Positions 5,525-63,997 of a stretch of DNA of 64,000 nucleotides are shown piece after piece. A program made the position numbers and the translations under genes. Numbering within the stretch: the stretch's first letter is position 1; every line of letters begins with the position of its first letter. The stretch spans positions 485-64,484 of the forward strand of contig JANORP010000479.1 of NCBI GenBank assembly GCA_031415375.1. The letters run 5' to 3'. The notes below the pieces were generated by a model. The model saw only the letters and a program-made list of their open reading frames with translations, was not told where the DNA came from and did no database searches. Origin of the DNA: Bacteroidota bacterium (GTDB lineage: Bacteria > Bacteroidota > Bacteroidia > J057 > JADKCL01).

Positions 5525-5540
5525 ATCGACCGACGATATG

Positions 5541-7509: not shown

Positions 7510-7689
7510 GGAGCAAAATTTACAGAATTTGCAGAATCAATGTTGGGTGCTGAATTCTTGGTCTTCCACCGAAGTGGGTCGGTTGCTGATGCCTTGGTGC
7601 GCGAAATGCAAGCTGTCATATCTGCTTTCTATTCCCAATCCGCCAACTGCCAAAATGATCAAACACCCATCCAAATAGGAGAGCTTCCC

Positions 7690-8106: not shown

Positions 8107-8118
8107 ATATCTGGATGT

Positions 8119-9105
8119 TTAGGACAATGGTGCAACATATTCTCCACTATAAACCTTGAGTGCCTCGCGCACCCAGCGGCCGTTTTCCTCGGCCATGCGG
8201 CGCACGGCAAGACGCTCTGCATTGCAGGGGCCGTTGCCGTTGATGACTTCATAGAATTCATTCCAATCGGGGTCGGAAAACTCCCAGATACCATCGGCAT
8301 TCTTGCGGAGATTGGGATCGGGGATGATGAGGCCCAGTTCCTTGATCTTGGGGACGTAGGTATCGAGGAAGATGTTGCGCATCTCATCATTCGTTCCCAT
8401 TTTGACCTTCCAGCGCATCAACACCTCGGTGTGTTGGCTCGCTTTGTCGGGCGGTCCATGAAAGTGCATGATGGGTTTCCACCAGCGATTGAAGGCCTCT
8501 TGAACCATTTTGCGCTGCGTGGGCGTGCCAGTGGCGAGATGCACGACGGAGTCGTGACCATATTTGAGGTGAAAGGACTCCTCATAACAGATGCGCTCAA
8601 GTGCTCGGCAATAGGGCCCGTAGGATCCCTTGGCGTTGATGGTCTGGTTCACGATCGCACCAGCGTCGATGAGCCAAGCAATCACAGCTGTGTCGGCCCA
8701 AGTCTTAGCGGGGTAATTGAAGACATTGCTGTATTTGCTTTTGCCGCTGATGAGGTCATTGATCATGTCCTCACGACTCTTACCAAGGGTCTCGGCGGCA
8801 GAATATAGCAATTGGCAGTGACCAGACTCATCTTGAACCTTGGCCATCAGCGCCAGTTTGCGCCTGAACCCAGGCGCACGCGTGATCCAGGTGCCCTCTG
8901 GCAATGCGCCAATGATCTCACTGTGCGCGTGCTGCTCAATCATGCGGATGAGCTGCTTGCGGTACATATAAGGCATCCAATCCATGGGCTCGATCTTCTC
9001 ACCGCGATCGATTTTGGCCTCAAACTCGGCCAAACACTCTGGATCTTCATCCTTTAAATCCTTGCCGAAGTTATCAAACTCCGTCACTGTCAACGCTCCG
9101 TACAT
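8119..9105 (-). CDS. paaA: 1,2-phenylacetyl-CoA epoxidase catalytic subunit PaaA
   Basis: 328 aa. Contains [28 protein letters not shown] and AKVQDESGH di-iron ligand motifs; operon position paaA-B-C-D. Confidence 0.9.
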
Positions 9106-49664: not shown

Positions 49665-52600
49665 TTATTTAGGTACCACCTTACCACTTACCGGCGGGCA
49701 AGCTCCTTGCTTGTCACCATGCTTGGCATGCACCGCCCAATCGGTTGCTGGGATCTCCAAAGTCACTGGCGCTTTGGGATTCTCTGGCGGAATATGGCAG
49801 ATGACGATTTTGGCGACCACCGGCTGCTTCACAGCGCCTTTTCCGTCCACCACACCCGTTTTCCCACCGACCGGCACTACTGCAGGCTTGCCGCCACCAT
49901 CGATTGGCTTCACGCCACCATCGACTGGCTTGCCGCCGCCATTGCTGCGACCTTGGTCACCTTCGAGGCAGGCACCCTGCGTGGCACCTTGCTCTTGGTA
50001 AATCGGCCACGACACGATCGGGATCAAAATCGTCTGATTTTGATAGCAGATCGTGATCTGCTGCAAGTTGCATGCACCGACTACATCGCGATGTGACTGG
50101 TGACCAGCCCAAGCCGACTCAGCAATCTCGATCGTCTGTGGATGCAAGGGATCGCCGGGCGGGATATGGCAGATGGTGATGCGTGCCTCGGGGCATGGCC
50201 CCTGCGTAGCACCTTGTGATTGGTAAGCCGCCCACGACGAGCTAGGCACGTTCATGTTTTGACCATCGATACAGATACTCATCAAGGTCATGTTGCAAGC
50301 GCCTTGCGTGTCGCCATGTGCCTGATGGGCAGGCCAGGCATTCTGCGGGATCGTGAGCGTCTGCGGATTTTCAGGATTGCCCGGCGGAATGTGACAGATG
50401 GTGATGCCTTGCGAAGGACATGGACCCTGGATCCAACCTTGTGATTGGTAGTAAGGCCAAGCAGCCGTAGGAATCTGGCGCGTGTTACCGTCGGCGCAAA
50501 TGCTCATCATCGTCATGTTGCAAGCTCCTTGCGTGTCGCCATGCGCTTGGTGAGCAGGCCATGCACTCGGTGGTACCGAGATCGTCTGCGGATTGTCGGG
50601 GTTGCCCGGTGGAATGTGGCAAATCGTAATATCGACCTCAGGGCAAGGCCCTTGGGTGGCACCTTGCAGTTGGTAATAATTGAAGGTCGCATTGGTGATG
50701 TTCATCGTCTCACCGTTGAGGCAGATGGTCATTCCCCCCATGTTGCAGGCACCTTGGGTATCACCATGACCTTGGTGAGCAGCCCAGGCACTTTGCGGAA
50801 TCGTGAGCGTCTGAGGATTGCGCGGGTTGCCCGGTGGAATGTGGCAGATCGTGAGTTGCGGCTCTGGGCATGGCCCTTGCGTCGCACCTTGGGACTGGTA
50901 GGCTGGCCATGCCGCAGTTGGCACGGTCATCGTCTGCCCATCCACGCAGATCGTGACGGGCGTCGTGTTGCAAGCACCTTGCGTATCGCCATGCGCTTGG
51001 TGGGCAGGCCATGCACTCGCAGGCACAGTGATCGTCTGCGGATTGCCGGGATTGCCAGGCGGGATATGGCAGATCGTCAATTGTTGCTCAGGGCAATCCC
51101 CTTGCTGCGCTCCAAGCGCCTGGTAGGCTGCCCAGCTGGAGGTCGGGATATTGATCTCCTGGTTGTTGTAGCAGATGCGCATCGGCGTCATGTTGCAAGC
51201 GCCTTGCTGGTCACCGTGGGCTTGGTGTGCAGGCCATGCGCTCGGGGCGATCGTGAGCGTCTGCGGATGCGAGGGGTCGCCCGGCGGCACGTGGCAGATG
51301 GTGATGTCAGCTTCTGGGCACTCGCCTTGCACCGCGCCTTGGGATTGATAGACTGCCCAACTTGCCGTTGGGACATTCAAGTCCTGACCATTCAAGCAGA
51401 TGCGTATCATCGTCATATTACAAGCCCCACGGGTATCGCCATGCGCTTGGTGTGATGCCCAAGCACTCTGCGGGATCGTGATCGTTTGCGGATGCGATGG
51501 ATCGCCTGGCGGGATATGGCAAATGACAATCTGAGGCTCTGGGCACGCACCTTGAGTAGCCCCCTGAGACTGGTAAGAAGGCCAAGCCGCAGTCGGCACG
51601 GTGATCGTCTGGTCATTGAAGCAGATCGTAATCGGCGTCATATTGCAAGCACCTTGCGTGTCGCCATGTCCCTGGTGGGCTGGCCATGCACTCTGCGGGA
51701 TAGAGATCGTCTGCGGATTGCCGGGATTGCCAGGTGGGATGTGACAAATCGTAATCTCATTTTCCTGCGGACAATCGCCTTCTATCGCACCTTGGGTGAG
51801 ATAGACTTGCAAGGATGCCCTTGGCACCTGGACCTCGCGGCCATTGAGGCAGATGACCACCATGGTCATGTTGCAAGCGCCTTGGGTGTCACCATGGCTT
51901 TGGTGCGAAGCCCAAGCACTTTGCGGAATCACGATCGTCTGCGGATGCGAGGGGTCGCCCGGTGGAATGTGGCAAATGGTGATCTCCTGCACAGGACATG
52001 GCCCCTGCGTCGCACCTTGGGATTGATAGCTAGGCCACGCTGCTTGAGGCACACTCATCGTCTGCCCGTCGATACAGATTTGCACAGGAGTCAAGTTGCA
52101 AGCACCTTGGGTGTCGCCATGTGCTTGGTGCGCTGCCCAGGCACTTTGCGGAATCGTGAGCGTCTGCGGATTGCCGGGATTGCCGGGCGGGATGTGACAA
52201 ATCGTAATCTCTGGATCAGGACATGGCCCCTCGGTATCGCCATGTGACAGGTGATAAGCCAGCGAAGCCCTAGGGATCTGCATGGTCGTCGATTGCCCAC
52301 GGGTCGTCCCTACATGGCAAATGGTCACCGTGCTCATGTCGCAGGTGCCTTGGACATCCCCATGTGCCTGGTGGCTAGGCCACTCGGTCATCGGGATCGT
52401 AAGCGTCTGCGGGCTATTGGGGCTGCCTGGTGGGATATGGCAAATGGTGATGCTCTGCACGGGGCAAGGCCCTTGCGTTGCACCCAATGCCTGGTAGGCA
52501 GGCCATGCAGCCGTCGGGATTTGCAGGGTTTGGCCCGTGCGCGAATCACCTTCGCGGTAGCAAATCGTCATCGGCGTCATGTTGCAAGCACCTTGGGTAT

Positions 52601-55600
52601 CGCCATGCGATTGGTGTCCCAACCATGCATTCTCGGGAATGGTAATCGTCTGCGCACCACTGGGATTGCCCGGTGGGATATGACAAATCTGGATCGTGCG
52701 GGTAGGACAAGCGCCACGGGTTGCACCCAAGCTCTGGTAATAGGGCCATACGCTCTCTGAGATGAGCAAGGTCTGATTTTGATAGCAGATCGAGATCAAG
52801 TTGCTGGAGCAAGCACCTTGCACGTCGCCGTGGCCTTGGTGGGCAGCCCATGCAGATTGCGGGATGGTGATCGTCATCGCACCACTAGGATTGCCTGGCG
52901 GGATATGGCAGATCTGGATTTCCTGTGGTGGGCATGCACCCTGGGTCGCGCCGAGGCTCAGCAATGCCTGCACTGCAGTATTGCTCACGGTCACGGTCTG
53001 CCCTTGGTAGCAAAGCGTAGTCTGTTGCGTGGCACAGGCGCCTTGCACGTCACCATGGCCTTGGTGGGCAGCCCACTGGTTTTCGTTGATCGTCATCGTC
53101 ACTGGCGCCGTCGGGTTGCCGGGCGGGATGTGGCAAATCGTGATCTGCCGCGGGGGGCACGCACCTTGGGTGGCTCCGAGATTTTGATAGACGGGCCAAG
53201 CGCTTTGCGAAACCGTCATCGTCTGGCCTTGGTAGCAGATCACCACCATGGTCGTCGAGCAAGGGCCCTGCACGTCGCCATGTGCTTGGTGCGATGCCCA
53301 AGCGGTCTCAGGAATGGTAAGGGTCTGCGCTGCCGCAGGATTGCCCGGCGGGATATGGCAAATGGTCACCGTGCGTGGCGGACATGGCCCTTGGGTAGCA
53401 CCGAGGTTTTGATAGACTGGCCACACCGTCTGCGAAACCGTAATGTTTTGGCCATTGTAGCAGATCGTGAGCTTGGTTCCGGAGCAAGCTCCTTGCACGT
53501 CGCCATGCCCCTGGTGCATGGACCACGCACTCTGCGGGATCGTCATCGTCGCTGCAGCCGCAGGATTGCCCGGCGGGATGTGGCAGATTTGGATATTGGG
53601 TTCTTGGCAAGGTCCCGTGGTGGCACCCATATTTTGGAATGCCCCGAGCGCAGATTGTGAGATCGATATCTGCTGACCTTGGAAGCAAATCGTGACCATG
53701 GTCTGTGAACAAGCGCCTTGGATGTCACCATGACCTTGGTGGCCCAGCCACTGGCTCACAGGGATCGTAAGCGTCTGCACATTTGCGGGATTGGCGGGCG
53801 GGATGTGGCAGATGGTGATCTGCTGCTCGACAGGCTGGGTACAGCTCAGCGACACACTCGCTTGGTCAGTCCCGACACTGTTGGTACCGATGATCGTGAA
53901 TTGCTCGACGATGCCAGGCGTGAGCGGCACGTCCATCACAAAGAGCTGGTTCATCGGGTTGAAGGAGTAGTTTTGCGGCGACACCACGCTGTTGCCAAAA
54001 AGCACGCGGATGTCTTGGATCCCATTGATGTTGAAGATCTGCGCCGTCACAATTTGATTGCAGTCGCTGCCTTGATAGACGCCACCCGTAGGGCGCACGA
54101 TCACGACATCAGGCGGTGGCAATTGCTGGTAGCAGCGCAGCATCTGGATGTCTGATGCGCGGCCAAACTGGTTGCTGGCGATGATTTCCACGATCGATTC
54201 GATGCCCTGCATGAGCGACACCGTGAGGGTCACTTGGCGCGTGTTGGGATTGTAGGACCAAGCATTGGGGGAGAGTAGCACGCGATCGACATAGACGCTG
54301 ATGTCATTTTTGCTTTGCACACCCGTGATCGTAGCGACGACAGTCTGCAAGCAGTTGGGGCTCACGAATGGCGTGATGCTCGGCGTGATGATCACGACAC
54401 CAGGTAGGTTGGGCTGCGCTTCTGGGCAGCGCAACATCGCCGTAGCGGTAGCCCGGCCAAATGGCGTCTGTGCAATGAATTCAAAACGATGGTCGCCAGG
54501 CGTGAGATCGACATTCATGACGACCTCATTGCTGCTAGGATAATACTCGTAATACTGGATCGGCACCTGCAAGCCGTTGTGATAGACAGCAACGTCTTGC
54601 TTGCTGCGAATATTATAGACAGTGACCTTGATCACACCACGGCAATCGGCCATGATTGCTGGGCAAGCGGTAGGATAGGTCACAAAGATCTGCGGCGGCA
54701 CACCGGTCGGCTGCGGATCGATCGGTATGATGATCGGCGCTTGACAGGTTGCAGAGAAACTCTGCGTCGCATTCGCATAGCGGTTGCGAGCAGTAAGTGT
54801 GAAATTATTGATGCCAGGAGCGAGATTCACCATCGCACTAAATTCGCCGGTGGATTCGTTGAAACTAAAGGAAGCAGGATCAACCGTGGTTCCATTTTGG
54901 GTGAAAATGACCAAAGCCTTGGAATGTACATTGTAAATGCGGGCTTTGACCTCAAACCGACATACACCCGGAACCTCATACGTCGGCCCCGATGGCATGA
55001 CCATCACGATTGCGGCACCATCGCCGCTCGGGGTATAGACATGTGGATCGGTGGGCGTGGTGCTGTGGTAGCTACCGCCGCCAAATAGCCCAAAGTCGAG
55101 ACTCAGACCTGCATAGTGGTGGATGTCTTTGTTGTAATTGAAAGCGTTATTATTGGTCGCGGCAAAGCCGTCGAGCAGATCGGTCTGGGGGAAAGTGATC
55201 TTCCACTCGGCCGACATCGCAAAGTAGCGGCTGAATTCGTAGCCAAAGCCGATGCCGACCGATGGTGCAAACCGCCAATGTGCCCAAGATGGGACGGGCA
55301 CACGGGTCTCCGAAGTACCATCACGCAAGAAATCGAGCTGGGTCCCGACCGACAATATGGAACCATTGCCGATTTGAGACGCATAGTTGTAAGGCGTTGA
55401 GCTAAAAAACTCATCAAAATTGTTTTGCTTGGGTTTGTAGCCCATCACGCCGACGCCACCCCATACATAGAGCAAAATGCCCGTATTGGCGCGCAAGCGA
55501 TTGGCTTTCAGTAGGAGCTCAAGGTCCCAATTGGTGGCACTCGTGCGGTGGTTGAGATAGTTTTGGCCACCGGGGAAGTTGAAGTCGGTGGTCGGCTTGA

Positions 55601-55865
55601 GGTTTTTCCCGTAGGAAACGCCCCAGAGGTAGCGTGCACGCAGACCAACGCCGATCAGGCTATGGTCGTTTTCGACGATTGGGACTTCAAAAGTAGCCCC
55701 AAATCCGCCGCCGCCTATGGTGCGCACATCTGAACTTTGCCATTCGACGCCACCATTCAACCCAAACCGCACTGCGGCTCGCGTTTCTTCTTTGATCTGC
55801 GCCTGGGCAAAAAGCCCACGCGAAATTCCAAGAAACAATAAAAAGAGAGGTAAAAAACGCTTCAT
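49665..55865 (-). CDS. giant outer-membrane-anchored repeat protein (N-terminal beta-barrel, 4 Ig-like modules, 18 Cys/His modules)
   Basis: Start moved to MKRFLPLFLLFLGISRGLFAQ (2066 aa). Barrel-like region at ~55074-55865, four ~95-aa Ig-like modules at ~53820-55020, then the ICHIPPGNP...HGD.QGAC array. No T9SS CTD. Confidence 0.9.
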   Translation of the reverse strand: MKRFLPLFLLFLGISRGLFAQAQIKEETRAAVRFGLNGGVEWQSSDVRTIGGGGFGATFEVPIVENDHSLIGVGLRARYLWGVSYGKNLKPTTDFNFPGGQNYLNHRTSATNWDLELLLKANRLRANTGILLYVWGGVGVMGYKPKQNNFDEFFSSTPYNYASQIGNGSILSVGTQLDFLRDGTSETRVPVPSWAHWRFAPSVGIGFGYEFSRYFAMSAEWKITFPQTDLLDGFAATNNNAFNYNKDIHHYAGLSLDFGLFGGGSYHSTTPTDPHVYTPSGDGAAIVMVMPSGPTYEVPGVCRFEVKARIYNVHSKALVIFTQNGTTVDPASFSFNESTGEFSAMVNLAPGINNFTLTARNRYANATQSFSATCQAPIIIPIDPQPTGVPPQIFVTYPTACPAIMADCRGVIKVTVYNIRSKQDVAVYHNGLQVPIQYYEYYPSSNEVVMNVDLTPGDHRFEFIAQTPFGRATATAMLRCPEAQPNLPGVVIITPSITPFVSPNCLQTVVATITGVQSKNDISVYVDRVLLSPNAWSYNPNTRQVTLTVSLMQGIESIVEIIASNQFGRASDIQMLRCYQQLPPPDVVIVRPTGGVYQGSDCNQIVTAQIFNINGIQDIRVLFGNSVVSPQNYSFNPMNQLFVMDVPLTPGIVEQFTIIGTNSVGTDQASVSLSCTQPVEQQITICHIPPANPANVQTLTIPVSQWLGHQGHGDIQGACSQTMVTICFQGQQISISQSALGAFQNMGATTGPCQEPNIQICHIPPGNPAAAATMTIPQSAWSMHQGHGDVQGACSGTKLTICYNGQNITVSQTVWPVYQNLGATQGPCPPRTVTICHIPPGNPAAAQTLTIPETAWASHQAHGDVQGPCSTTMVVICYQGQTMTVSQSAWPVYQNLGATQGACPPRQITICHIPPGNPTAPVTMTINENQWAAHQGHGDVQGACATQQTTLCYQGQTVTVSNTAVQALLSLGATQGACPPQEIQICHIPPGNPSGAMTITIPQSAWAAHQGHGDVQGACSSNLISICYQNQTLLISESVWPYYQSLGATRGACPTRTIQICHIPPGNPSGAQTITIPENAWLGHQSHGDTQGACNMTPMTICYREGDSRTGQTLQIPTAAWPAYQALGATQGPCPVQSITICHIPPGSPNSPQTLTIPMTEWPSHQAHGDVQGTCDMSTVTICHVGTTRGQSTTMQIPRASLAYHLSHGDTEGPCPDPEITICHIPPGNPGNPQTLTIPQSAWAAHQAHGDTQGACNLTPVQICIDGQTMSVPQAAWPSYQSQGATQGPCPVQEITICHIPPGDPSHPQTIVIPQSAWASHQSHGDTQGACNMTMVVICLNGREVQVPRASLQVYLTQGAIEGDCPQENEITICHIPPGNPGNPQTISIPQSAWPAHQGHGDTQGACNMTPITICFNDQTITVPTAAWPSYQSQGATQGACPEPQIVICHIPPGDPSHPQTITIPQSAWASHQAHGDTRGACNMTMIRICLNGQDLNVPTASWAVYQSQGAVQGECPEADITICHVPPGDPSHPQTLTIAPSAWPAHQAHGDQQGACNMTPMRICYNNQEINIPTSSWAAYQALGAQQGDCPEQQLTICHIPPGNPGNPQTITVPASAWPAHQAHGDTQGACNTTPVTICVDGQTMTVPTAAWPAYQSQGATQGPCPEPQLTICHIPPGNPRNPQTLTIPQSAWAAHQGHGDTQGACNMGGMTICLNGETMNITNATFNYYQLQGATQGPCPEVDITICHIPPGNPDNPQTISVPPSAWPAHQAHGDTQGACNMTMMSICADGNTRQIPTAAWPYYQSQGWIQGPCPSQGITICHIPPGNPENPQTLTIPQNAWPAHQAHGDTQGACNMTLMSICIDGQNMNVPSSSWAAYQSQGATQGPCPEARITICHIPPGDPLHPQTIEIAESAWAGHQSHRDVVGACNLQQITICYQNQTILIPIVSWPIYQEQGATQGACLEGDQGRSNGGGKPVDGGVKPIDGGGKPAVVPVGGKTGVVDGKGAVKQPVVAKIVICHIPPENPKAPVTLEIPATDWAVHAKHGDKQGACPPVSGKVVPK
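49668..53819 (-). repeat. in-frame coding tandem array, 225-bp period (17 full units of 75-81 aa plus 1 half unit)
   Basis: Counted from the translation. Every unit starts with I(T/Q/V)ICH(I/V)PP. The unit count is 18, with a Gly/Lys/Pro-rich linker before the last unit. Confidence 0.9.
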
Positions 55866-56204
55866 AAACTTAATTGGTCTCGATGATTTCCGTAGGCAAC
55901 GCCATAAGCGTTCCAAAAAAGACATTCTACCCTGAGAAACGCCTTGCAATCGTAATTGGCTCGCAAATTAGCTAAAAATTGTGTGCAATCGATATGGAAC
56001 CGTAACTTTCAACCTGTCTGATTTAATATACGTAATGGTCATTCTCAGTGGTCACTTTTCTATTCACCTCAGCTAGCTTGCGGCCCATCTCAAGGATTCA
56101 TCTGGCAGGGCCTAGACCTGCATTGAAGGGTTGCATGCAATTGCCAATAGGATCAAGCGAAAGCTAGATTGAGCGGCAATCCATTGAATCTGCTATATTG
56201 CAGC

Positions 56205-56708
56205 ATGATTTCACATGAATTGAAAGCCCAGGCCACGCTGGCCTACCACAACTGGAAGATGCGCAGTCCGGAAACATTTCCTTCCATCAGCGAGGAGGTC
56301 TTCATCCTGAAGTTTGAGGAGCTGCAAGCCACACACAACCGTGGGTTGATGAAGCGCACAGAGTTTGACCAGCGCATCGACGAGTTGTTGCGCAATCCGG
56401 GCATGGCCCTGAGCATCACCCATTTCACGCCACAAGAGAGACCGACTGAGACGCTGTTGCGCGAGCTCGAACACCTCAAAAAATCAGGCATCTTGAACGA
56501 TGAGGAATTTGAAACACGCAAGGGCGAGTTGTTTTTCCAACGCGGTGTGGAGGAAGGGCAGCCAGCGGTGACGGCTGCAAGCCATCCTAGCGGCGAAAAT
56601 CCTGATCAGGTCAAGGCCCGCCTTGCAGGCTATTTGGAGGAATTGCTGCGCGCCGGCATCATGAGCCATACCGAATATGCGATGGCCCAACAGCGGCTCA
56701 AAGCGTGA
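56205..56708 (+). CDS. SHOCT-repeat protein
   Basis: Start moved to ATG MISHELKAQ, preceded by TATATTG. SHOCT-like motifs LEHLKKSGILNDEEFETRKGELF and LEELLRAGIMSHTEYAMAQQRL. Confidence 0.6.
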   Translation: MISHELKAQATLAYHNWKMRSPETFPSISEEVFILKFEELQATHNRGLMKRTEFDQRIDELLRNPGMALSITHFTPQERPTETLLRELEHLKKSGILNDEEFETRKGELFFQRGVEEGQPAVTAASHPSGENPDQVKARLAGYLEELLRAGIMSHTEYAMAQQRLKA

Positions 56709-56718
56709 CCAGCGACAG

Positions 56719-57381
56719 ATGACGGCTTTTGAGATTGTCTGCCTAGGGCTGGAAACACCTGCCGATGCCCATTTCAGAGAGGCGATGCGTCCGGAATTGC
56801 AACGTCGCCTACTGGAATGCACCGCTGATGACTGGGAACTGTTGCTTGTTGAATGGCCGCGCCGCCCGGTCGCTTGGTGCGGGCAGCTCGTCGATGTTTT
56901 GTCGCCGAGCAAGCATGGGCGCGCAGCGCTCGCGCTCTTGCTTGCACTCACAGTCGAGGGCCCAGTCGCTTGCATGGACGATGCCGCCCAAAAACTCATC
57001 GCCAGCCAGGCCCTCAATGCCACCGAACGCGCACTCGTCTCCACAGCGCTCACGACCCGTGGTCTCGACGGCCTCGGCCGACTCGCATTCAATCGTCGTG
57101 AAGATTTGCTGATGGCCTTCGGTCAACCAACCCAAGGACCGAGCATTCAGGAGGCTTGCGAATTTGCAGCAGATCACCGTGCAGCTTTGACGGAGAGTGT
57201 GATGGCAGCTTGCTATTATTGCCAGACAGTCTTTCCTGCGAGTCTCATCAGTGAATTCACTGATGGTCAGCAGACTGCACTCTGCCCATATTGTGGCACA
57301 GACGCTGTCTTGCCATCTGCTGCCGGCTATGACTTCACTGCGGCTGGTTTGCAAGCGCTGAACGAATTTTGGTTCATTTAG
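56719..57381 (+). CDS. hypothetical helical protein with C-terminal CxxC...CxxC zinc-ribbon
   Basis: Start moved to ATG MTAFEIV, 10 nt after the upstream stop. C-terminus: CYYCQTVFPASLISEFTDGQQTALCPYCGTDAVLP. Confidence 0.6.
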   Translation: MTAFEIVCLGLETPADAHFREAMRPELQRRLLECTADDWELLLVEWPRRPVAWCGQLVDVLSPSKHGRAALALLLALTVEGPVACMDDAAQKLIASQALNATERALVSTALTTRGLDGLGRLAFNRREDLLMAFGQPTQGPSIQEACEFAADHRAALTESVMAACYYCQTVFPASLISEFTDGQQTALCPYCGTDAVLPSAAGYDFTAAGLQALNEFWFI

Positions 57382-57592
57382 GGATGCACAAGGCTCACAG
57401 GAATCATCCAAGGCACATCGATGCAGCAATCTTCCTGCCAAAAATATTTTTAGGCAACAATCTCACAAAATGCTGGCGCTGTCGTATATGATGCTAACCG
57501 CAAATGTCCTCCCCGAAAAAATTGTTGCCCCAGTGGCAAGGCCATTGGTTTCCATTTGGCTGATTTCGATTTCTTCTTAAATTGGCTCAGAG

Positions 57593-58282
57593 ATGTCACG
57601 CAAAATATTCATCAGCTACCGCCGTTCAGACTCTGCCGATTTCTCGGTGGCGCTGTACAATGAGCTGCGTGGATACTATGACGAATCCTTCATTTTCAAG
57701 GACATCAATACCATCCAGCCAGGTCAGCAATTTGCTGAGGTGCTCGAGAATGCGCTGGACCACTGCGCAGTGGTGCTCGTGGTGATCGGCCCGACCTGGC
57801 TCACGGTGAGCGGGGCGCGCTTGTTTGAGGAGCATGATTGGGTGCGCCAAGAGATCGCCAGGGCACTCGCCCGCAACCTGCGGGTGATCCCGATCCTCGC
57901 CAACGGCACCAAAATGCCCAAAACCGAGGAGCTGCCAGATGATCTTCATGGCTTGTGCAAACGCCAAGCCCTCGAGATTGACAACCAACGTTTTGAATAT
58001 GACGTAGCACAGTTGTGCAGGGCCATCCAAGATTTGGTTCCTTCCAAAAAACGAAGGGTGGCACCTGCAGGCAGCTCATACTGGGACAATGCTTTCAAGG
58101 CCATATTGCTCCTGTTCATGCTGGCTAGCATAGGTCTCATCGTATGGGCCTGGCTGGGAAGCGAGGGGCAATTCACTGAAAAAATCACGATGTCACTGCT
58201 TGGACTAGGTGGCATGGCTGGGGGCTGGGCTGCTTTTACGCGTCAGCGATGGATAGAATTGAGGGCCCATCAAATCGAATAA
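57593..58282 (+). CDS. TIR-domain protein with two C-terminal transmembrane helices
   Basis: 229 aa. It has a TIR_2-type N-terminus KIFISYRRSDS, then VVLVVIGP and DWVRQEI (W-x3-E). TM helices: AFKAILLLFMLASIGLIVWAWLG and ITMSLLGLGGMAGGWAAF. Confidence 0.8.
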   Translation: MSRKIFISYRRSDSADFSVALYNELRGYYDESFIFKDINTIQPGQQFAEVLENALDHCAVVLVVIGPTWLTVSGARLFEEHDWVRQEIARALARNLRVIPILANGTKMPKTEELPDDLHGLCKRQALEIDNQRFEYDVAQLCRAIQDLVPSKKRRVAPAGSSYWDNAFKAILLLFMLASIGLIVWAWLGSEGQFTEKITMSLLGLGGMAGGWAAFTRQRWIELRAHQIE

Positions 58283-58284
58283 GA

Positions 58285-58977
58285 ATGACTCTACACGGAA
58301 AATTTGGAGACCCAAAAACTGAACGCGACATCCTGTCTGCCAAACGATTCAATTTTGCATCGCTGGTGGTGCTGATCATGGCCATCGTCGCCGCTTTTTT
58401 TATGTATCTGCAGCTGATTTCCCAGCAGCGTGAATTGGAAGTGAAGACGCAACAACTGGCAGACAGCACGGCCCACCTGCGCAGGATCAGAGGTGAACTG
58501 GAGGAGGCCCAGCGGTCGCTGGCTATGCGCGAACAACGCATGGAGATGCAATTGGAAAATCTCAGCAACAGCGTCGAGCAGAGACAGTTCGACAGTGCCT
58601 TGGTGCAAGCCACGGCGATCAGCTCGCAGCTGGCTCGCAAGGACAGCACGGGACTCACCTTCATCAACTTCTATGCTTGGCAGCCGCAATCCAGCATCCT
58701 CTCAACCATCAAATCCTACCTCGCTGCACCAGAGTTCATCCTCGTGAAGCAGGAAACCCTGCAAGAGCTGCCCGATTGGATGGGCAAAAAGTCTGCCGTG
58801 TATTATTATTCCAAGACCGCCGCTTCCAAGGCAGAGACCATTGCGAAACAACTCAGCGCCATGTCGGGGAGTTCCTTTGAAGCCCTGCGCGGCGATGCCC
58901 AAAATGCGCCGCAAAATGGGCACCACGAATGGATACATATTCATTACCTTGGCGGCAGTTCGTATTTGCGTAAATGA
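58285..58977 (+). CDS. single-pass membrane coiled-coil protein with unknown C-terminal domain
   Basis: Start moved to ATG MTLHGKF, 2 nt after the TIR stop. TM FNFASLVVLIMAIVAAFFMYLQLI, a ~70-aa coiled coil, and a ~110-aa alpha/beta-looking tail. Confidence 0.65.
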   Translation: MTLHGKFGDPKTERDILSAKRFNFASLVVLIMAIVAAFFMYLQLISQQRELEVKTQQLADSTAHLRRIRGELEEAQRSLAMREQRMEMQLENLSNSVEQRQFDSALVQATAISSQLARKDSTGLTFINFYAWQPQSSILSTIKSYLAAPEFILVKQETLQELPDWMGKKSAVYYYSKTAASKAETIAKQLSAMSGSSFEALRGDAQNAPQNGHHEWIHIHYLGGSSYLRK

Positions 58978-60518
58978 ATGTAGCGTCTCCAAGCCTGTCC
59001 CCTTCTCGCAAGCTCCCGCTTTGGGTGTGGTGCCTGCTTGCGTGCAGCAGCCTCGTTCTCCTATCCTACACCTGCTATCGCGCAGCGGTGGTCACCCTCA
59101 CATTTGATGAGATCTGGAGCTTGAATGCTTATGCCAAGGCTAGCTGGGCCAACATCTTGGCTTTCAAACCCCTGAGCGCCAACAATCATATCGGGAATAG
59201 CCTGCTCATGAAGCTATGTTTGCAAGCTTTTGGCGACTCCGCACTGAGCCTGCGGCTCCCCAACTTGCTAGCCCATGGAATCTTCCTTGCCTACGCCATC
59301 GCTATGGCCCGGCGACTGCGCCAAGGCGTATGGGTTCTGCTCGCTTTTTTCCTTTTGAATTTCCATCCCTACCTGCTGGATTTTTTTTCGTTGGCACGGG
59401 GCTATGGGTTGGCCATGGCCATGGTCATGGCTGCCTTGTACCACCTGTTTGCCTTTCGGGAGAATGCCTTTTCTCGCCATATCATTTCCAATATCATTTT
59501 TGCGGGTCTATCGGTGGTCTTCAACTTGTCTTTCCTTCATTTTTTTGTGGCCAACGCCTTGGTGATGGTGCTCCTCATTTACAGCCATTCTCATGCCTGG
59601 AATGTCGATTTGCGGCAAGCGATTGTCTCGATGCTGAAGCGGCTAGCGCCGCTGCTCATCGTCTCGCTAGCACTTTACCTTTTCTTGCGCAAGCCGGTGC
59701 AAGCCTTGGTTGCTGCAAATGAACTCTATTATGGCGGCCACAGCGGTTTCTGGAGCGACACCGTCACGACCCTAGCCCACGCATTGCTCTACAAGATCGA
59801 CTACTGGCACCAAGACCTGGATTTGCTATTGAAATTTGGGCTGGGCAGCCTCTTCTGCATGTTTATTGCATTTGGGATCGAGCTGTCTGAGCGGCAATGG
59901 AAGTGGCGCGAATCCCCGGGTATGCTCACATTGATGCTCATGCTCGTGCCTACGGTGACCTGCACCGTGCAACATTTCACAGTGGGCAGTCCATTTCTCA
60001 TTTACCGCACCGCATTGTTTCTATTGCCGATCTATATGCTCGGCCTCGTCTGGCTGCTGCGCACGATTGCCAAGGTTCCTGCCTTTCGCAAAGGCGTGAT
60101 CGCCGTGTCCCTGCTCATCACCGCCATGCTCAGTATCCATAATTTTTGCGCCCTCAATCTCACGCATTGCGCTGAGTGGTCCACCGATGCAGACACCGCC
60201 ACGATGTTGCAGGATTTGAAGGCCGACCGGCTGCGGCGCGGCATCTCAGGCCCGAGCACCCTGGGGATGAGCTGGCAATTGAGGCCCGGCACCAATTATT
60301 ACAGAACCCATCAACATTTGGATTGGCTGCCCGAGATTCCACAAGCTAGCTGTCCTGCAGGGATGGATTATTATTTCCTACTAGGCGGCGAATGGACGTG
60401 CAAGTTGCCCGTTGCGCCATCGGCGACCGGGGAATGCGCTGGCTGTACACTCATCCAAAGTTACCCGATCTCCAACACGACCTTGTGGCGCGTGGCGCCT
60501 ACAGCAATCGCCGATTGA
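58974..60518 (+). CDS. GT-C fold (GT39/GT83, PMT/ArnT-like) polytopic glycosyltransferase
   Basis: 514 aa with >=10 predicted TM helices. First-loop DE motif (TFDEIWS) and SLRLPNLLAHGIFLAY pattern. The ATG overlaps the upstream stop (ATGA). Confidence 0.65.
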   Translation: MNVASPSLSPSRKLPLWVWCLLACSSLVLLSYTCYRAAVVTLTFDEIWSLNAYAKASWANILAFKPLSANNHIGNSLLMKLCLQAFGDSALSLRLPNLLAHGIFLAYAIAMARRLRQGVWVLLAFFLLNFHPYLLDFFSLARGYGLAMAMVMAALYHLFAFRENAFSRHIISNIIFAGLSVVFNLSFLHFFVANALVMVLLIYSHSHAWNVDLRQAIVSMLKRLAPLLIVSLALYLFLRKPVQALVAANELYYGGHSGFWSDTVTTLAHALLYKIDYWHQDLDLLLKFGLGSLFCMFIAFGIELSERQWKWRESPGMLTLMLMLVPTVTCTVQHFTVGSPFLIYRTALFLLPIYMLGLVWLLRTIAKVPAFRKGVIAVSLLITAMLSIHNFCALNLTHCAEWSTDADTATMLQDLKADRLRRGISGPSTLGMSWQLRPGTNYYRTHQHLDWLPEIPQASCPAGMDYYFLLGGEWTCKLPVAPSATGECAGCTLIQSYPISNTTLWRVAPTAIAD

Positions 60519-61277: not shown

Positions 61278-63617
61278 TCATCGACTGTTGTGGTGGATCG
61301 ATACCCAATCCTTGCCCACATTCACGCCCAGCGTCTCACGCACGAGTGCACTGTACTTCTTGTGCAGGGACGCGGATTGTTTCTTGCCATCCACAAAAAA
61401 TTCTTCGTTGTTGATTTTCAGCTTGAAGGAGTTTGGGTTCTTCACCAATCCGTCTGAGGCTAGGGCATCACCGATGACCTCTGATGCATTTTCGGCGCGA
61501 TCAGCTTCCTCTTCGGCGCGGGCGGCTTCCTCATCGGCGCGAGCGGCCTCTTCATCGGCGCGGGTGGCCTCCTCATCGGCACGCGCGGCTTCCTCATCGG
61601 CGCGTGCGGCTTCCTCATCGGCGCGGGTGGCCTCCTCGTCGGCACGGGTGGCTTCCTCATCGGCAGCCCGTTGCTGTTGCTCTGCGGCACGCTCCATCGA
61701 GGCAGCAAAACGCTCACCCCATGCTTCCATCTGCGCCTCGAATCCTGCCATCTTTCCCTCCATAGCTGCACCTTGCATTTCGCCCATTTCATCCTGCTTC
61801 AAGGCAATTTGCTCCTTCAAGTCATCCCGCTCACGCTTTCCTTTGGCATTGTCCAACTGCTCATTCAGTTGATCCAGCTCAGATTGCAACTCCTTGAATT
61901 CGGGGGAATCATCGATTGTAGGCATGTTTTCTGCAAGATGGGCAAATTGCTCACCAAACTGCTCACCCCACTGCTCCATTTTCGCCCCATATTCCTCCCA
62001 ATCTTTGCCATCAAATTGTTTGGCAAATTCTTCACCCCATCGCTCCATCTCCTTGCCAAAATTTTCCATGTCGCGCTCAAAAGCCTTCTCATTGAAGCCG
62101 GGCGTGCCAGGCATGTCCATCGGTGGCATGGCGGGCATGGGAGGCAATGCACCCATGCTAGGGATTGGAGGCATCGGGGATAACGGGGCAAGTCCTGGTG
62201 CTGCGGATCTCTGAAAGAAGCTCGTGGCCATATCTTGATAACCCACGAGGTCTTCGGCAGGGATCGCCACGCCGTTGCGGGTGCCGCTCATGACTTTGCC
62301 GGCGCCATTGAACCGCAGCTCTACTTCCTCACCATTGTCGGTCATGGTGACTTTGGTAATGGGCGAGTCTTGGGCTACTGAAGTAAAATGCAGTGTGCCG
62401 AGCAGCGAAGCCAAGCGCATCGCATTCAGCAGCGACCCGGCGGCAGACGTGCTGCTGTTGGAAAGGCTAGTACTCGTTTCCACGACGGTCGATGTATTTA
62501 CTTTGGTAATAGCGGGCTTGGTTGCAGTCTCTGTCACGGTTTGGTCCATGAAAAAGGGCAATGCAGCCTTCACGACGGTATGGCTTTGTGTGGCCAGCAG
62601 CAATACGCAGCCCATCGTGATGAGTCCAAAGAGGAGTCCACGGGCATGGAAGCGGCGCTTGGTGGGCATCGGGCCGCCCGTGATGCGACGGATGCGGCTT
62701 GCTAGATCGCCCCCTTGAGAGGCCATCGCCAAGGCGGTCGGCTGCTGCCGCAGCAACTCCAAACTCAGCAGCGCCCGGGCATACTGCACCTTGTTGGATT
62801 TGAGGTGTACAACCAGCTCGTCGCAGCAGTTTTCACGCTCTTGACGGATGATGCCGGTGACCCACCAAGTGGCCGGATGGTAAAAAAGTACGATCTCTGC
62901 AATGCTTTGCAGCATATTGAGCAGGTAGTCCCAGCGCCTCACGTGCCCCAATTCATGGATCAAGATGCACTCCACCTGCTCCATCGTGAGGCCCGACAAA
63001 AGGCCCATGGGCAGCAATACAATCGGCTTGAGCGCACCGATGACCATAGGGGTGTCGATGAGGCTACTATAGCGGATGCCGACATATCTACGGATGCCGA
63101 CTTGGTCCAGCAGATCGACAAAACGGGTCACCAGGTCCTGAGGCACCTCTTGCGTGCCTTGCTTGCGTAGCCGATGGATATGCCAGCAGCTCCCTAGAAA
63201 GCGCATCGTCAGTGCCACCATCCCCAGCATCCAGAGACCGAAGAGGAAATAGGCATTCTCTTGGAAAAAAGCATTCACTTGATCAATAAAGCCTAGGCTT
63301 TTCACGATCGTCGCAGGTGGTCGCACCATTGCGCTATGCATTTGGAATACGGCAGGGTTCAACCCTGTCGCCACGTGTGAAGGTGTAGCCGTTGCAGGTT
63401 CATATAGCAGGCCAAATGTGGCCATAGGGAGCACAAGCATCACGCCCATGCTGCTCAAGGCTAGCCAATAGCGCAGACGGGCGGCACGTTGTGGCACCAG
63501 GGCCAGGGCCACGATGAGGGCCAATGCCACAGCGGCGAGCTGCCACAGTGAGTGCATCAAAGTAGCACCGATCGCCTCGGCGAGATGAGTTGGGATAAGG
63601 GATTCCAGTGATTTCAT
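61278..63617 (-). CDS. BlaR1/M56-family membrane metallopeptidase-type sensor with long atypical C-terminal region
   Basis: 779 aa. N-terminal TM helices and HELGHVRRWD (M56 HExxH). C-terminal Met/Pro-rich tract, W-G-E-x-F repeats, and an 8x heptad acidic repeat. 4-nt overlap with blaI-like. Confidence 0.85.
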   Translation of the reverse strand: MKSLESLIPTHLAEAIGATLMHSLWQLAAVALALIVALALVPQRAARLRYWLALSSMGVMLVLPMATFGLLYEPATATPSHVATGLNPAVFQMHSAMVRPPATIVKSLGFIDQVNAFFQENAYFLFGLWMLGMVALTMRFLGSCWHIHRLRKQGTQEVPQDLVTRFVDLLDQVGIRRYVGIRYSSLIDTPMVIGALKPIVLLPMGLLSGLTMEQVECILIHELGHVRRWDYLLNMLQSIAEIVLFYHPATWWVTGIIRQERENCCDELVVHLKSNKVQYARALLSLELLRQQPTALAMASQGGDLASRIRRITGGPMPTKRRFHARGLLFGLITMGCVLLLATQSHTVVKAALPFFMDQTVTETATKPAITKVNTSTVVETSTSLSNSSTSAAGSLLNAMRLASLLGTLHFTSVAQDSPITKVTMTDNGEEVELRFNGAGKVMSGTRNGVAIPAEDLVGYQDMATSFFQRSAAPGLAPLSPMPPIPSMGALPPMPAMPPMDMPGTPGFNEKAFERDMENFGKEMERWGEEFAKQFDGKDWEEYGAKMEQWGEQFGEQFAHLAENMPTIDDSPEFKELQSELDQLNEQLDNAKGKRERDDLKEQIALKQDEMGEMQGAAMEGKMAGFEAQMEAWGERFAASMERAAEQQQRAADEEATRADEEATRADEEAARADEEAARADEEATRADEEAARADEEAARAEEEADRAENASEVIGDALASDGLVKNPNSFKLKINNEEFFVDGKKQSASLHKKYSALVRETLGVNVGKDWVSIHHNSR
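61497..61664 (-). repeat. 8 tandem 21-bp in-frame repeats encoding (A-D-E-E-A-A/T-R)n
   Basis: On the plus strand the unit GGCTTCCTCATCGGCGCGGGC is repeated with few substitutions. Protein: ADEEATRADEEATRADEEAARADEEAAR... Confidence 0.85.
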
Positions 63618-63997
63618 TGCTTTGAATCATTTTCTATCGTGTCCAAATAGGCGCGAATCTGATCGATCTCGGCTGAGCTTGCCTTGTGCCCGCCGAGGGT
63701 TTGTAGCACGAGTTGCATCGCAGACCCACTGAAAGCGCTTTCCAAAAAGCGGTCTAGCAATGCACGTTGGGTGAGCTCGCGATCCACGATGGCAGCATAA
63801 ATATGCCCTTTGCCATCCTTTTCCCTTTCGAGCAGCCCTTTCTCATGCATGATTTGCAAAAATTTGAGCGTCGTCGTGTAGCCAATGTCGCGCTTCGCGC
63901 TCAGCACATCATTGACTTCACGCACAGAGCAAGGCCCTCGTTCCCAGAGCACTTGCAAAATCTCCAGCTCAGCATCAGTAGGTTTCAGCGTTTCCAT
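63614..63997 (-). CDS. BlaI/MecI/CopY-family transcriptional repressor
   Basis: 127 aa with winged-helix N-terminus LKPTDAELEILQVLWERGPCSVREV. Upstream of, and coupled to, the M56 gene. Confidence 0.9.
   Translation of the reverse strand: METLKPTDAELEILQVLWERGPCSVREVNDVLSAKRDIGYTTTLKFLQIMHEKGLLEREKDGKGHIYAAIVDRELTQRALLDRFLESAFSGSAMQLVLQTLGGHKASSAEIDQIRAYLDTIENDSKQ

Follow-up and report, generated by a model that had tools for sequence, protein, structure and literature searches.

A TIR gene and a bitopic partner gene form a conserved pair in a Bacteroidota lineage: a possible envelope-coupled TIR membrane module

Introduction

What might a membrane-anchored TIR protein be doing in an operon with a coiled-coil membrane protein and a glycosyltransferase? 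The question is posed by a plus-strand locus of a Bacteroidota contig; the window, as used here, is the whole 64,000-nucleotide stretch of that contig that was analysed, and all positions refer to it. An earlier note had suggested that the three genes may be a single module, serving either defence/abortive infection or envelope surveillance linked to glycosylation. To our knowledge, no operonic link of a GT-C enzyme to a TIR protein has been described.

Organization of the locus

The three tightly packed open reading frames of the earlier note were re-checked, with no change of coordinates:

57593-58282, plus strand: gene 1, TIR-2TM protein of 229 aa (TIR_2 domain, then putative hairpin and basic tail)
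58285-58977, plus strand: gene 2, bitopic partner protein of 230 aa (TM segment, coiled-coil stalk, alpha/beta head)
58974-60518, plus strand: gene 3, GT-C glycosyltransferase of 514 aa (accessory operon member)

Both proposed junctions are there: gene 1 ends at TAA 58280-58282, 2 nt ahead of the gene 2 ATG at 58285, and the gene 3 ATG at 58974 overlaps the gene 2 stop (TGA 58975-58977) as ATGA. A longer reading frame for gene 2, from ATG 58249, is also present; however, 24 of 25 gene 2 homologues begin at the methionine of an MTLxGxFGDP motif, and 58285 is therefore the real start. The operonic coupling is real. Tight junctions recur in related loci: the TIR gene and gene 2 overlap by 4 nt or are separated by 2-10 nt at most of them (54 nt in L001), and gene 2 and the GT-C gene overlap by 4 nt or lie 1 nt apart at the loci with gene calls.

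The operon had also been placed directly divergent from a giant Cys/His repeat gene. It is not, because two plus-strand genes intervene, here listed with the intergenic region that follows them:

56169..56708, plus strand: SHOCT-repeat protein of 179 aa (SHOCT E=1.1e-7)
56677..57381, plus strand: zinc-ribbon (CxxC...CxxC) protein of 234 aa (weak Zn_ribbon matches)
57382..57592, plus strand: 5' intergenic region of the TIR gene, with two conserved DNA blocks

The SHOCT gene often accompanies the TIR gene on the same strand, lying upstream of it in 8 of 11 related contexts (with a spacing of 17 nt in L001), and may belong to the operon. The zinc-ribbon gene, which has tblastn homologues in L003, L006 and L007 and whose position is occupied by similar-sized genes in L094 and L089, is a syntenic neighbour in some relatives only. 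Alignment of the intergenic region with L006, L007, L094 and L009 picks out one block reading TCACAAAATG...CGTAT and another, TTCTTAAMTTGG, situated 8-9 nt ahead of the TIR ATG. A search of 57382..57592 against Rfam yielded no family match, and scans for sigma-70 promoters and terminators gave signals not above chance.

The conserved unit is a gene pair

The TIR gene adjoins gene 2 in all 11 distinct related contexts, across which the TIR protein is 50-77% identical and gene 2 21-61%. The GT-C gene is present in six of these contexts and absent from five; it is missing from all basal branches and was lost once within the GT-C-bearing clade (L009), where the pair was kept. Synteny with both downstream genes, on which the earlier note had staked its reading, thus holds for gene 2 and breaks down for the GT-C gene. 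What is conserved as a unit is the pair of TIR gene and gene 2; the GT-C gene is an optional accessory, dispensable to the core pair, and the notion of an obligate three-gene combination is not sustained.

The pair sits in a flanking syntenic block (SHOCT, DUF1415, BlaR/BlaI and Tex genes), and the synteny of the locus is stable and vertically inherited. The related loci all belong to a single uncultured Bacteroidota lineage, within which synteny is extended. Of the GTDB species representatives, only four have a full-length orthologue. At the same loci the TIR protein is better conserved than the products of DUF1415, SHOCT, gene 2 or GT-C genes. This is not the setting of a defence island: a known defence gene (SMODS/ThiF, in L092) lies near just one of the 11 contexts, a small sample. 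The usual Thoeris, CBASS and STAND partners are indeed absent, as the earlier note had remarked; PADLOC, run on 16 neighbouring proteins, reported nothing besides the TIR protein itself, and neither PADLOC nor Pfam recognised an effector or signal-binding domain (SIR2-SLOG, Macro, DUF2270, SLATT and others) in gene 2, in gene 3 or in any of 14 further neighbouring proteins. Window neighbours are metabolic or envelope genes, and a Wzy_C gene lies nearby in L001.

The TIR protein and its membrane anchor

The TIR_2 assignment of gene 1 holds: residues 5-115 match Pfam PF13676 with E=1.4e-12 and score 48.6 bits, where the gathering cut-off is 28. The same family is the precomputed annotation of all 40 orthologues, which span 50-79% identity. 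With a profile of these orthologues, the best solved relative is the TIR domain of SARM1 (E=1.5e-11). Two segments of the protein are set out here:

57851..57853, plus strand: GAG codon of E87, putative catalytic glutamate of DWVRQE (W83 is four residues upstream)
58094..58279, plus strand: putative membrane hairpin and tail (TM1, aa 168-188; loop; helix 2, aa 200-215; tail)

The suggestion that DWVRQE provides the context of a catalytic glutamate is borne out by alignment: W83 and E87, invariant in the 40 orthologues, match W638 and E642 of SARM1 (numbered per chain 7knq_A), which lie in DWVHKE. The corresponding residues of the TIR consensus, W71 and E75, are ligand-binding, and the same glutamate is also frequent in the TIR domains of TLR1/2/6/10 (PMC7075850), so that its conservation does not suffice as proof of NADase activity. 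The gene 1 TIR is a putative NADase and probably competent as such.

Of the two C-terminal TM helices that had been claimed, TM1 (hydropathy 2.9) stands and the second is marginal. A short acidic loop joins TM1 to this second helix (aa 200-215, MSLLGLGGMAGGWAAF), which is glycine-rich and weakly hydrophobic (hydropathy ~1.2). We infer a membrane hairpin. The segment shows a weak RseC_MucC 2TM match (E=0.0014). The tail carries the motif F-[TS]-R-Q-R-W-[IL]-E-x-R, in which F215, R217, Q218, R219, W220, E222 and R224 are invariant across the 40 orthologues.

The partner protein

The description of gene 2 as a single-pass coiled-coil protein with a C-terminal domain is correct; it has one TM segment, followed by helices and an alpha/beta domain:

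aa 1-23: conserved N-tail, probably cytoplasmic
aa 24-45: TM segment
aa 46-118: coiled-coil stalk
aa 125-222: alpha/beta head
58462..58470, plus strand: sequon D60-S61-T62 in the stalk (gene 2 has three conserved sequons of the form D-[ST]-[AILVMT], and this one comes first)

The stalk is a long helix until aa 96 and a second helix at aa 103-118; the AF2 model has a pLDDT of 71.7 overall and 73-89 in the head. In the N-tail, no homologue, down to those that are only 21-31% identical, departs from G8, P10, T12, A19, K20, R21 and N23. Outside the catalytic residues, nothing in the two proteins is as invariant as this N-tail and the tail of the gene 1 hairpin, and each flanks a TM helix; these invariant juxtamembrane segments suggest a contact between gene 1 and gene 2.

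The sole credible fold match of the head is the LytR_C domain of Rv0431/VirR, which is the best Foldseek match although a weak one (E=0.026, probability 0.98, TM-score 0.49); the gene 2 sequence has no match to Pfam LytR_C (PF13399). VirR has a role in cell-wall remodelling and self-associates (PMC11832169).

The other two sequons of gene 2 occupy aa 103-105 and 120-122. The three are found in 26, 22 and 12, respectively, of 28 family members, and the family averages 2.3 sequons per protein as against 0.49 in shuffled sequences. The D-[ST]-[AILVMT] pattern is one that we take to be the Bacteroidota O-glycosylation motif.

The module that gene 2 consists of (TM segment, coiled coil and head) is found in 189 cluster representatives. 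Four proteins have it fused behind an nSTAND1 NTPase, and since exactly one TM segment separates the two, head and ATPase come to lie on opposite sides of the membrane; in one STAND fusion, P0358, no TM segment is predicted. Lysines and arginines flanking the TM segment number only 4 on one side and 2 on the other in gene 2, and about 4 and 3 in the family consensus (as read from the sequences). Stalk and head probably reach into the periplasm. Only two distant gene 2 homologues have usable context, with a small 2TM gene upstream in one and nothing in the other. A search for viral copies of gene 2 found none.

The glycosyltransferase

That gene 3 encodes a GT-C enzyme is upheld by its predicted structure (AF2 pLDDT 89.6), for which the best 42 Foldseek matches in the PDB are all GT-C (probability at least 0.99), STT3/PglB, ArnT, ALG, DPY19, Emb and PMT among them. 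The DE motif claimed for its first loop follows a helix at residues 16-39:

59106..59111, plus strand: codons GAT GAG of D45-E46, in the first loop past TM1 of gene 3

T43, D45 and E46 are invariant across 26 homologues whose identity goes down to 26%. Gene 3 itself has no match in Pfam (E<=0.1), and none at the sequence level in NCBIfam or the PDB, so its assignment comes from fold and homologues, 14 of the 26 aligned homologues matching PF13231 (PMT_2, best 6e-8). Gene 3 is a predicted polyprenyl-phosphate-dependent GT-C glycosyltransferase.

A working model and its alternatives

The composite picture that we tentatively favour, while giving it somewhat less than an even chance, is of a two-component TIR membrane module with a periplasm-facing partner and an optional GT-C enzyme, in which the state of the envelope controls the TIR. 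A SARM1-like TIR domain would be held in the cytoplasm by its C-terminal hairpin, with the basic tail returning to the cytoplasm; the invariant N-tail and TM helix of gene 2 would lie beside this anchor, and a ~11-nm coiled-coil stalk would project the LytR_C-like head into the periplasm. The head would sense the state of the envelope, that is, damage to or perturbation of cell wall or glycans, possibly caused by phage. Its report would alter how the complex of TM segments and tails packs as an oligomer, and the altered packing would license TIR-TIR assembly and cleavage of NAD+, the outcome being NAD+ depletion or an ADPR-derived signal. Where it is present, in part of the lineage, the GT-C enzyme, presumably facing the periplasm, may glycosylate the gene 2 stalk or a nearby envelope glycan. 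Several observations speak against the model: the small difference in charge across the gene 2 TM segment, the P0358 fusion, the weakness of the LytR_C match, the marginal second helix of gene 1, the frequency of the glutamate in TLR1/2/6/10 and the contexts of the two distant gene 2 homologues.

Genes 1 and 2 could then be a split version of widespread proteins that carry the same arrangement in one chain. The 73 nearest TIR relatives elsewhere belong to many phyla; in 58 of them the TIR domain is followed by a TM segment, and 50 have exactly one, followed by 117-526 residues that should by topology be extracytoplasmic; PASTA, Ig-like and trypsin-like domains occur at this C-terminal position, and PPIase and FGE-sulfatase domains in further TIR relatives. 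Conflict systems that combine a TM segment with peptidoglycan-binding domains have been described (PMC7159879). The more specific version of the model, a two-chain analogue of Toll-like receptors in which a periplasmic wall/glycan sensor (gene 2) signals to a cytoplasmic SARM1-like TIR NADase, is possible though doubtful. If it is true, the pair joins a large class of TIR proteins that are coupled to the envelope, TIR-TM-PASTA and Ig-like forms among them, the pathway is one of vertically inherited envelope surveillance and not a mobile phage-defence island, and the same sensor module is reused by nSTAND1 NTPases. Of the two functions that the earlier note had offered, envelope surveillance fits better than does the classical abortive-infection island.

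Immune genes are not usually inherited in so strictly vertical and syntenic a manner, and a housekeeping role would account for this pattern just as well. Such a role would have the pair, with or without the GT-C enzyme, work in normal envelope or glycan biogenesis, the TIR acting as a non-immune regulator or scaffold that, for example, links NAD status to envelope assembly. The stable order of SHOCT, TIR, gene 2 and (where present) GT-C genes, then DUF1415, BlaR/BlaI or Tex, in every context speaks for it, as do the superior conservation of the TIR protein, the PADLOC-negative metabolic and envelope neighbours and the lack of viral gene 2 copies in our search; the LytR_C-like head, the GT-C partner and the Wzy_C gene of L001 all point to envelope glycans. 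We nevertheless consider it unlikely: the catalytic tryptophan and glutamate show the strict conservation that they have in NAD-cleaving TIRs; the gene 2 module also occurs in fusion with NTPases of the nSTAND1 type, typical of conflict systems (see PMC8195603); and the restriction of full-length orthologues to four species representatives means that the function of the pair is not broadly essential. That there is no functional link at all, adjacency merely reflecting vertical inheritance of a whole block, is the least credible reading, and we give it very little weight. Adjacency on its own is weak evidence, because the related loci share one lineage and extended synteny. But the TIR/gene 2 junction stays within 10 nt or overlapping at most loci over ~50% protein divergence, and persists in L090, L092 and L004 while the flanking genes change; the pair outlasts the loss of GT-C and DUF1415 genes in L009 and replacement of the upstream genes in L092, and both proteins have invariant juxtamembrane segments.

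The remaining alternatives retain a defence function. An obligate three-gene defence or abortive-infection system of TIR-2TM, coiled-coil and GT-C proteins could invoke the tight coupling in the window and in five other distinct contexts, and the co-divergence of the GT-C enzyme with the pair (in L001 it is 38% identical, the TIR 59%); the absence of the GT-C gene from five of the 11 contexts and the want of a defence-island context make it highly improbable. Somewhat better placed, though still improbable, is a Thoeris-like pair nearest to type VII, in which the TIR would make a cADPR-type signal and gene 2 would be a SLATT-related membrane effector that oligomerises and breaches the membrane. 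Two-gene operons of TIR and SLATT proteins with cADPR signalling have recently been validated as type VII Thoeris (bioRxiv 10.64898/2025.12.03.692087). Among the 28 members of the gene 2 family, 14 have SLATT_5 (PF18160) as their best Pfam match (lowest E=2.9e-6), and the best defence-library matches of the TIR are ThsB/ThcB models. However, the best SLATT_5 score is 27.2 against a gathering threshold of 29.5, the window gene 2 has no match, and the similarity spans only the TM segment and coiled coil, which are prone to compositional matches; gene 2 has one TM segment, where the SLATT core has two. If its N-terminus is inside, just 23 residues are cytoplasmic and leave no pocket for a nucleotide signal. 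The TIR scores 59.7 bits with NCBIfam ThcB4 against a cut-off of 220, and its PADLOC match to ThsB1 is partial (E=5e-11, model positions 138-237 of 396). Defence genes are not enriched around the contexts (one of 11), and we know of no Thoeris TIR that is membrane-anchored, as that of gene 1 is.

Comparison with known systems

The single-chain TIR-one TM proteins, of whose C-terminally extended forms we know no functional characterisation, are 35-49% identical to gene 1 over the TIR domain and share with it the D[WF]VRxE motif, the N-terminal position of the TIR and the membrane anchor. They carry the partner domain beyond the TM segment, whereas here the ectodomain would be supplied in trans by a separate gene, and the gene 1 chain would, unlike theirs, hairpin back to the cytoplasm. 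SARM1 (PDB 6o0q/7knq) shares Box 1, (D/K)(V/I)FISYRR, and DWV(H/R)(K/Q)E, with the ligand-binding tryptophan and catalytic glutamate aligned; it forms soluble octamers of ARM-SAM-TIR chains under the control of NMN/NAD, whereas gene 1 has its TIR at the N-terminus, followed by a putative membrane hairpin, and neither ARM nor SAM domains.

Type VII Thoeris (ThsB TIR plus the SLATT effector ThsH) is likewise a two-gene operon of a TIR and a small long-helix membrane protein, and gene 2 homologues show weak SLATT_5 similarity; it differs in that the SLATT similarity of gene 2 is sub-threshold, with one TM segment instead of two and a body that probably faces the periplasm, in the membrane anchor of the window TIR and in the location of the locus outside defence islands. 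VirR/Rv0431 of M. tuberculosis (PDB 2m5y) resembles gene 2 in its small size, its membrane anchor and an alpha/beta head whose fold matches weakly; gene 2 differs in its lack of a sequence-level LytR_C match, its long coiled-coil stalk, its diderm Bacteroidota host and its pairing with a TIR protein. The membrane-proximal iSTAND/nSTAND conflict systems (PMC7159879, PMC8195603) also couple a cytoplasmic signalling or effector domain to an envelope-facing domain, but the window has no such NTPase and the cytoplasmic domain is a TIR from a separate gene. Gene 3 has the fold of ArnT (5f15, E=3e-5), PglB, STT3, ALG and PMT, and in common with ArnT/PMT/PglB-type enzymes an acidic DE motif in the first loop; unlike them, it goes unmatched in sequence by Pfam, NCBIfam and PDB entries. 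Set beside these systems, the arrangement looks like an undescribed mode of connecting TIR enzyme and cell envelope.

The conserved unit

Three plus-strand open reading frames, which the earlier note took to be co-translated, are confirmed in their coordinates, in the TAA/ATG spacing of the first junction and in the ATG-TGA overlap of the second:

57593-58282, plus strand: gene 1, TIR protein, 229 aa, stop TAA at 58280-58282
58285-58977, plus strand: gene 2, transmembrane (TM) and coiled-coil protein, 230 aa, start ATG at 58285, stop TGA at 58975-58977
58974-60518, plus strand: gene 3, GT-C glycosyltransferase, 514 aa, ATG at 58974 overlapping the gene 2 TGA

The window takes in nearly all of its 64.6-kb NCBI contig. 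A longer gene 2 reading frame is possible from ATG 58249; 24 of 25 gene 2 homologues start at the methionine of an MTLxGxFGDP motif. Two blocks of DNA 5' of the TIR start (within 57382-57592) are conserved between the window and related loci L006, L007 and L094. The first is TCACAAAATG, followed ~10 nt later by CGTAT; the second, TTCTTAAMTTGG, ends 8-9 nt before the TIR ATG and, but for one mismatch, looks like the Bacteroidota -7 element TAnnTTTG. Scanning for sigma-70 promoters and terminators yielded nothing above shuffled expectation, and Rfam gave a single chance match, below threshold.

Comparison of 11 distinct genomic contexts, the window included, establishes that the TIR gene adjoins gene 2 in every one, with a 4-nt overlap or a 2-10 nt gap at the junction (54 nt in L001, the exception). 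The GT-C gene is present in six (the window, L001, L006, L007, L092 and L094) and absent from five (L003, L004, L009, L089 and L090). A neighbour-joining tree built from the TIR proteins puts loci without it on the basal branches; L009, which is nested within the GT-C-carrying clade, retains the pair but has lost the third gene. The conserved unit is the pair of TIR gene and gene 2, with the third gene optional: the synteny anticipated for both downstream genes holds for gene 2 and fails for GT-C. Comparison of three homologue lists indicates more three-gene loci among close relatives.

A SHOCT gene lies upstream of the TIR gene in 8 of the 11 contexts, and the downstream flank in related contexts is DUF1415, BlaR/BlaI or Tex. 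At the same loci, identity to the window protein is highest for TIR (50-77%), the corresponding ranges being 46-72% for DUF1415, 39-78% for SHOCT, 38-67% for GT-C and 21-61% for gene 2. A full-length TIR orthologue occurs in only four GTDB species representatives, all of them Bacteroidota MAGs.

Genomic setting

A defence island, which the earlier note had considered, is not what surrounds the locus: among 16 proteins around it PADLOC recognizes the TIR protein itself and nothing else; the Pfam-identified neighbours are metabolic or envelope proteins (formate-THF ligase, a beta-lactamase-fold protein, RNA ligase, PI-PLC and T9SS cargo); and a defence-type cluster (SMODS + ThiF, ~5.6 kb upstream, on the opposite strand) is found nearby in L092 only, one of the 11 contexts. 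That minus-strand cluster (L092 1-6477; ENA ERZ4206175 NODE_447) takes the place of the SHOCT and zinc-ribbon genes ahead of the TIR operon and contains, besides SMODS (CD-NTase-like) and a ThiF/E1-like protein of 601 aa, four genes without annotation. It looks like CBASS and may mark a variable insertion site.

Several neighbours merit description in their own right. A giant ORF of 2094 aa (window 49665-55949, minus strand) consists of ~20 tandem repeats of ~70 aa with the motif ICHIPPGNP...HxxHGD...G(A/P)C; it matches no Pfam family (FtrD-like only, E=0.007) and no PADLOC model, and its position is taken by large secreted proteins in L001 (1965 aa, HYR + Por_Secre_tail) and L094 (1840 aa). 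The RNA ligase (46736-47725, plus strand) has a PHA02142-type OB-fold domain (E=1.5e-36), a domain combination that looks phage-like although the gene stands among metabolic ones. A 779-aa BlaR1/M56 peptidase-like sensor (61278-63997, minus strand) with a long C-terminal Glu/Ala-rich repeat (EEATRADEEA...) has a BlaI/CopY-type repressor as its partner, and this pair keeps its synteny with the TIR locus in L006, L007, L009 and L094. Directly upstream of the SHOCT-TIR operon of L001, a minus-strand gene (6501-8372) encodes a Wzy_C (O-antigen ligase-like) + TPR protein, another envelope-glycan gene adjoining the module.

The TIR protein and its relatives

Gene 1 scores 48.6 bits against Pfam TIR_2 (cut-off 28). 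PADLOC and NCBIfam return only partial ThsB/ThcB-type matches far under the family cut-offs (59.7 for ThcB4, cut-off 220). When a profile built from 40 full-length orthologues is searched against all PDB sequences, the only matches are TIR chains of the SARM1 family, from human (SARM1) and nematode (tir-1), with a best E=1.5e-11. The profile alignment sets DWVRQE against SARM1 DWVHKE and so pairs E87 with the catalytic E642, and W83 with the ligand-binding Trp (numbering of chain 7knq_A, 724 residues); all 40 orthologues share D82, W83, V84, R85 and E87 without exception. The catalytic-Glu context that had been read from the sequence is thereby borne out. A survey of TIR domains assigns ligand binding to the same two positions (W71 and E75 in its numbering), and cautions that the Glu by itself is no predictor of TIR activity (PMC7075850).

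The TIR domain is followed by a strongly hydrophobic helix (aa 168-188), a 13-residue acidic loop, a glycine-rich, weakly hydrophobic helix (aa 200-215) and an invariant basic C-terminal tail, F-[TS]-RQRW-[IL]-E-x-R. The first of the two TM helices originally claimed thus stands; the second, weakly hydrophobic, is putative. The simplest reading of the anchor is a hairpin with both basic flanks in the cytoplasm, for which the second helix would also have to pass the membrane. Judged by its sequence, the gene 1 TIR is SARM1-like, membrane-anchored and enzymatically plausible.

Some 570 other genome matches, from many phyla, share the TIR domain only (35-49% identity), and the D[WF]VRxE catalytic motif is kept in the relatives inspected. 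A TM segment follows the TIR domain in 58 of 73 complete ORFs of this wider family; in 50 of the 73 there is exactly one, succeeded by 117-526 residues. Pfam scans of ten one-TM relatives recognize, among the regions beyond the TM, PASTA (L063, L071), Ig-like/ASH and trypsin-like domains; PPIase and FGE-sulfatase annotations are found on further TIR relatives. This census therefore places the window TIR in a class usually composed of a cytoplasmic TIR, one TM and a domain that is outside the cytoplasm by topology. The TIR–TM–Ig-like–PASTA proteins of L063 (10001-12166) and L071 (10001-12211), both from Pseudomonadota MAGs, parallel the PknB-type peptidoglycan-sensing kinases in architecture, with TIR replacing the kinase. 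Membrane-proximal iSTAND conflict systems with TM and peptidoglycan-binding domains have been described (PMC7159879).

The partner protein

No family in Pfam, NCBIfam or PADLOC matches gene 2. Its AF2 model (pLDDT 71.7; 73-89 in the head) describes a bitopic protein with stalk and head. A helix spanning aa 10-96 contains the TM segment (24-45) and, beyond it, the long stalk; another helix occupies aa 103-118, and a beta-alpha-beta-beta-alpha-beta-beta domain aa 125-222. One Foldseek match in the PDB is credible, the remainder being noise: the C-terminal LytR_C domain of M. tuberculosis Rv0431/VirR (E=0.026, probability 0.98, TM-score 0.49). VirR has been tied to cell-wall remodelling and to interaction with LCP proteins via LytR_C domains (PMC11832169). 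Conservation peaks in the 23-residue N-terminal tail, where G8, P10, T12, A19, K20, R21 and N23 are invariant even at 21-31% overall identity.

Exhaustive profile search defines a gene 2 family of 189 cluster representatives. An unannotated family of heads has the motif RPxWL...STVxYYD...GAGLGVxxGQEKWTFFIHY; in representative P0286 the head domain occurs in three tandem copies, and nSTAND1 NTPases P0358, P0367, P0381, P0409 and P0312 end in a TM–coiled-coil–head module of the gene 2 type. A scan of viral contigs found no relatives. Across 88 fetched loci, HMM search places the family only beside orthologous TIR-2TM genes, with none near 76 TIR-only loci. Metagenome scanning for distant homologues gave only 3 loci, too small a sample to show a pairing habit of distant members. 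In one of these loci, L087, a small gene (5162-5509, plus strand) lies 4 nt upstream of the gene 2 homologue (5513-6217); its product, 115 aa long, is predicted to have two TM helices and ends in a basic, helical tail, and it has no TIR domain, no similarity to the TIR hairpin and no Pfam family. On this single example, gene 2-type proteins may generally be paired with small 2TM proteins. The distant homologue of L086 has no partner gene.

The stalk and head are likely periplasmic, as three lines of evidence suggest. Our own reading of the sequences gives a weak charge bias around the TM segment (four K+R on the N-side, two on the C-side). Four family members have the module C-terminal to an nSTAND1 NTPase, from which exactly one predicted TM separates it; another such fusion, P0358, in which no TM is predicted, is an exception that we cannot explain. 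Finally, D-[ST]-[AILVMT] sequons, which we take to be the motif of the Bacteroidota general O-glycosylation system acting on extracytoplasmic proteins, recur in the stalk at aa 60 (26 of 28 members), aa 103 (22/28) and aa 120 (12/28); there are 2.3 per family protein vs 0.49 in shuffled sequences, a difference that is not an independent statistic since the proteins are related by descent. Co-occurrence with FGE-sulfatase was rejected as periplasmic evidence because in conflict systems FGS/FGE domains frequently lie in the cytoplasm, and because P0374 is truncated at the N-terminus.

The optional GT-C enzyme

The window's gene 3 matches nothing in the Pfam, NCBIfam and PDB sequence libraries, and the GT-C and gene 2 family profiles alike retrieve from PDB sequences nothing, or coiled-coil noise. 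PF13231 PMT_2 is matched by 14 of 26 aligned gene 3 homologues. The AF2 model is confident (pLDDT 89.6), and its best 42 Foldseek matches in the PDB are all GT-C enzymes (STT3/PglB, ArnT, ALG, DPY19, Emb/Aft and PMT). With T43, D45 and E46 invariant in the first loop, the original assignment as a GT-C enzyme with a DE motif there is upheld. GT-C is an accessory enzyme of the module; that it glycosylates the sequon-rich stalk of gene 2 is a guess. The enzyme and the glycosylation-type sequons together suggest a connection of protein or envelope glycosylation with TIR control.

A split envelope-facing TIR module?

Of the initial interpretation, the domains and the tight coupling survive; the defence island does not, and an obligate three-gene system is contradicted by the synteny data, GT-C being confined to 6 of 11 contexts. 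Our tentative proposal, to which we give somewhat less than an even chance, is that the pair is a split version of the TIR–one TM–outside domain design: gene 2 would provide the periplasmic stalk and head, and gene 1 the TIR in the cytoplasm. Coupling would run through an interface made up of the TM helices and the invariant juxtamembrane segments that both proteins contribute; on sensing a change at the envelope, the pair would shift its packing so as to permit TIR self-association and NAD+ cleavage. The output could be NAD+ depletion or a signalling nucleotide, the trigger phage or general envelope damage.

A housekeeping envelope role, which we consider rather unlikely, would fit vertical inheritance and the high conservation, and would make the module a rare case of a non-immune bacterial TIR. 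Less probable still is a pair like Thoeris type VII, TIR + SLATT, a combination recently validated for other operons (bioRxiv 10.64898/2025.12.03.692087): sub-threshold SLATT_5 matches do recur in 14 of 28 gene 2 family members, but none reaches the cut-off, the window's own gene 2 has no such match, and the similarity is confined to the TM and coiled coil of a protein with one TM segment rather than two, which under its likely topology would leave just 23 residues in the cytoplasm.

What would be new in the split pair is that a TIR protein, membrane-anchored and enzymatically plausible, is coupled in trans to a partner that faces the envelope and comes from a family without annotation; a description of a TIR-2TM + partner pair was not found in the literature. 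To our knowledge, characterized bacterial TIR systems are mostly cytoplasmic, sensing phage components inside the cell and then signalling or depleting NAD+. If the proposal is true, a sensor facing the envelope can drive TIR NADases from beyond the inner membrane, and the pair offers an entry point to the many uncharacterized TIR–TM–PASTA and Ig-like proteins across phyla, as well as to the 189-cluster TM–coiled-coil–head family. The module would then follow the same outside-in logic as the animal Toll-like receptors, with the enzymatic TIR chemistry of SARM1.
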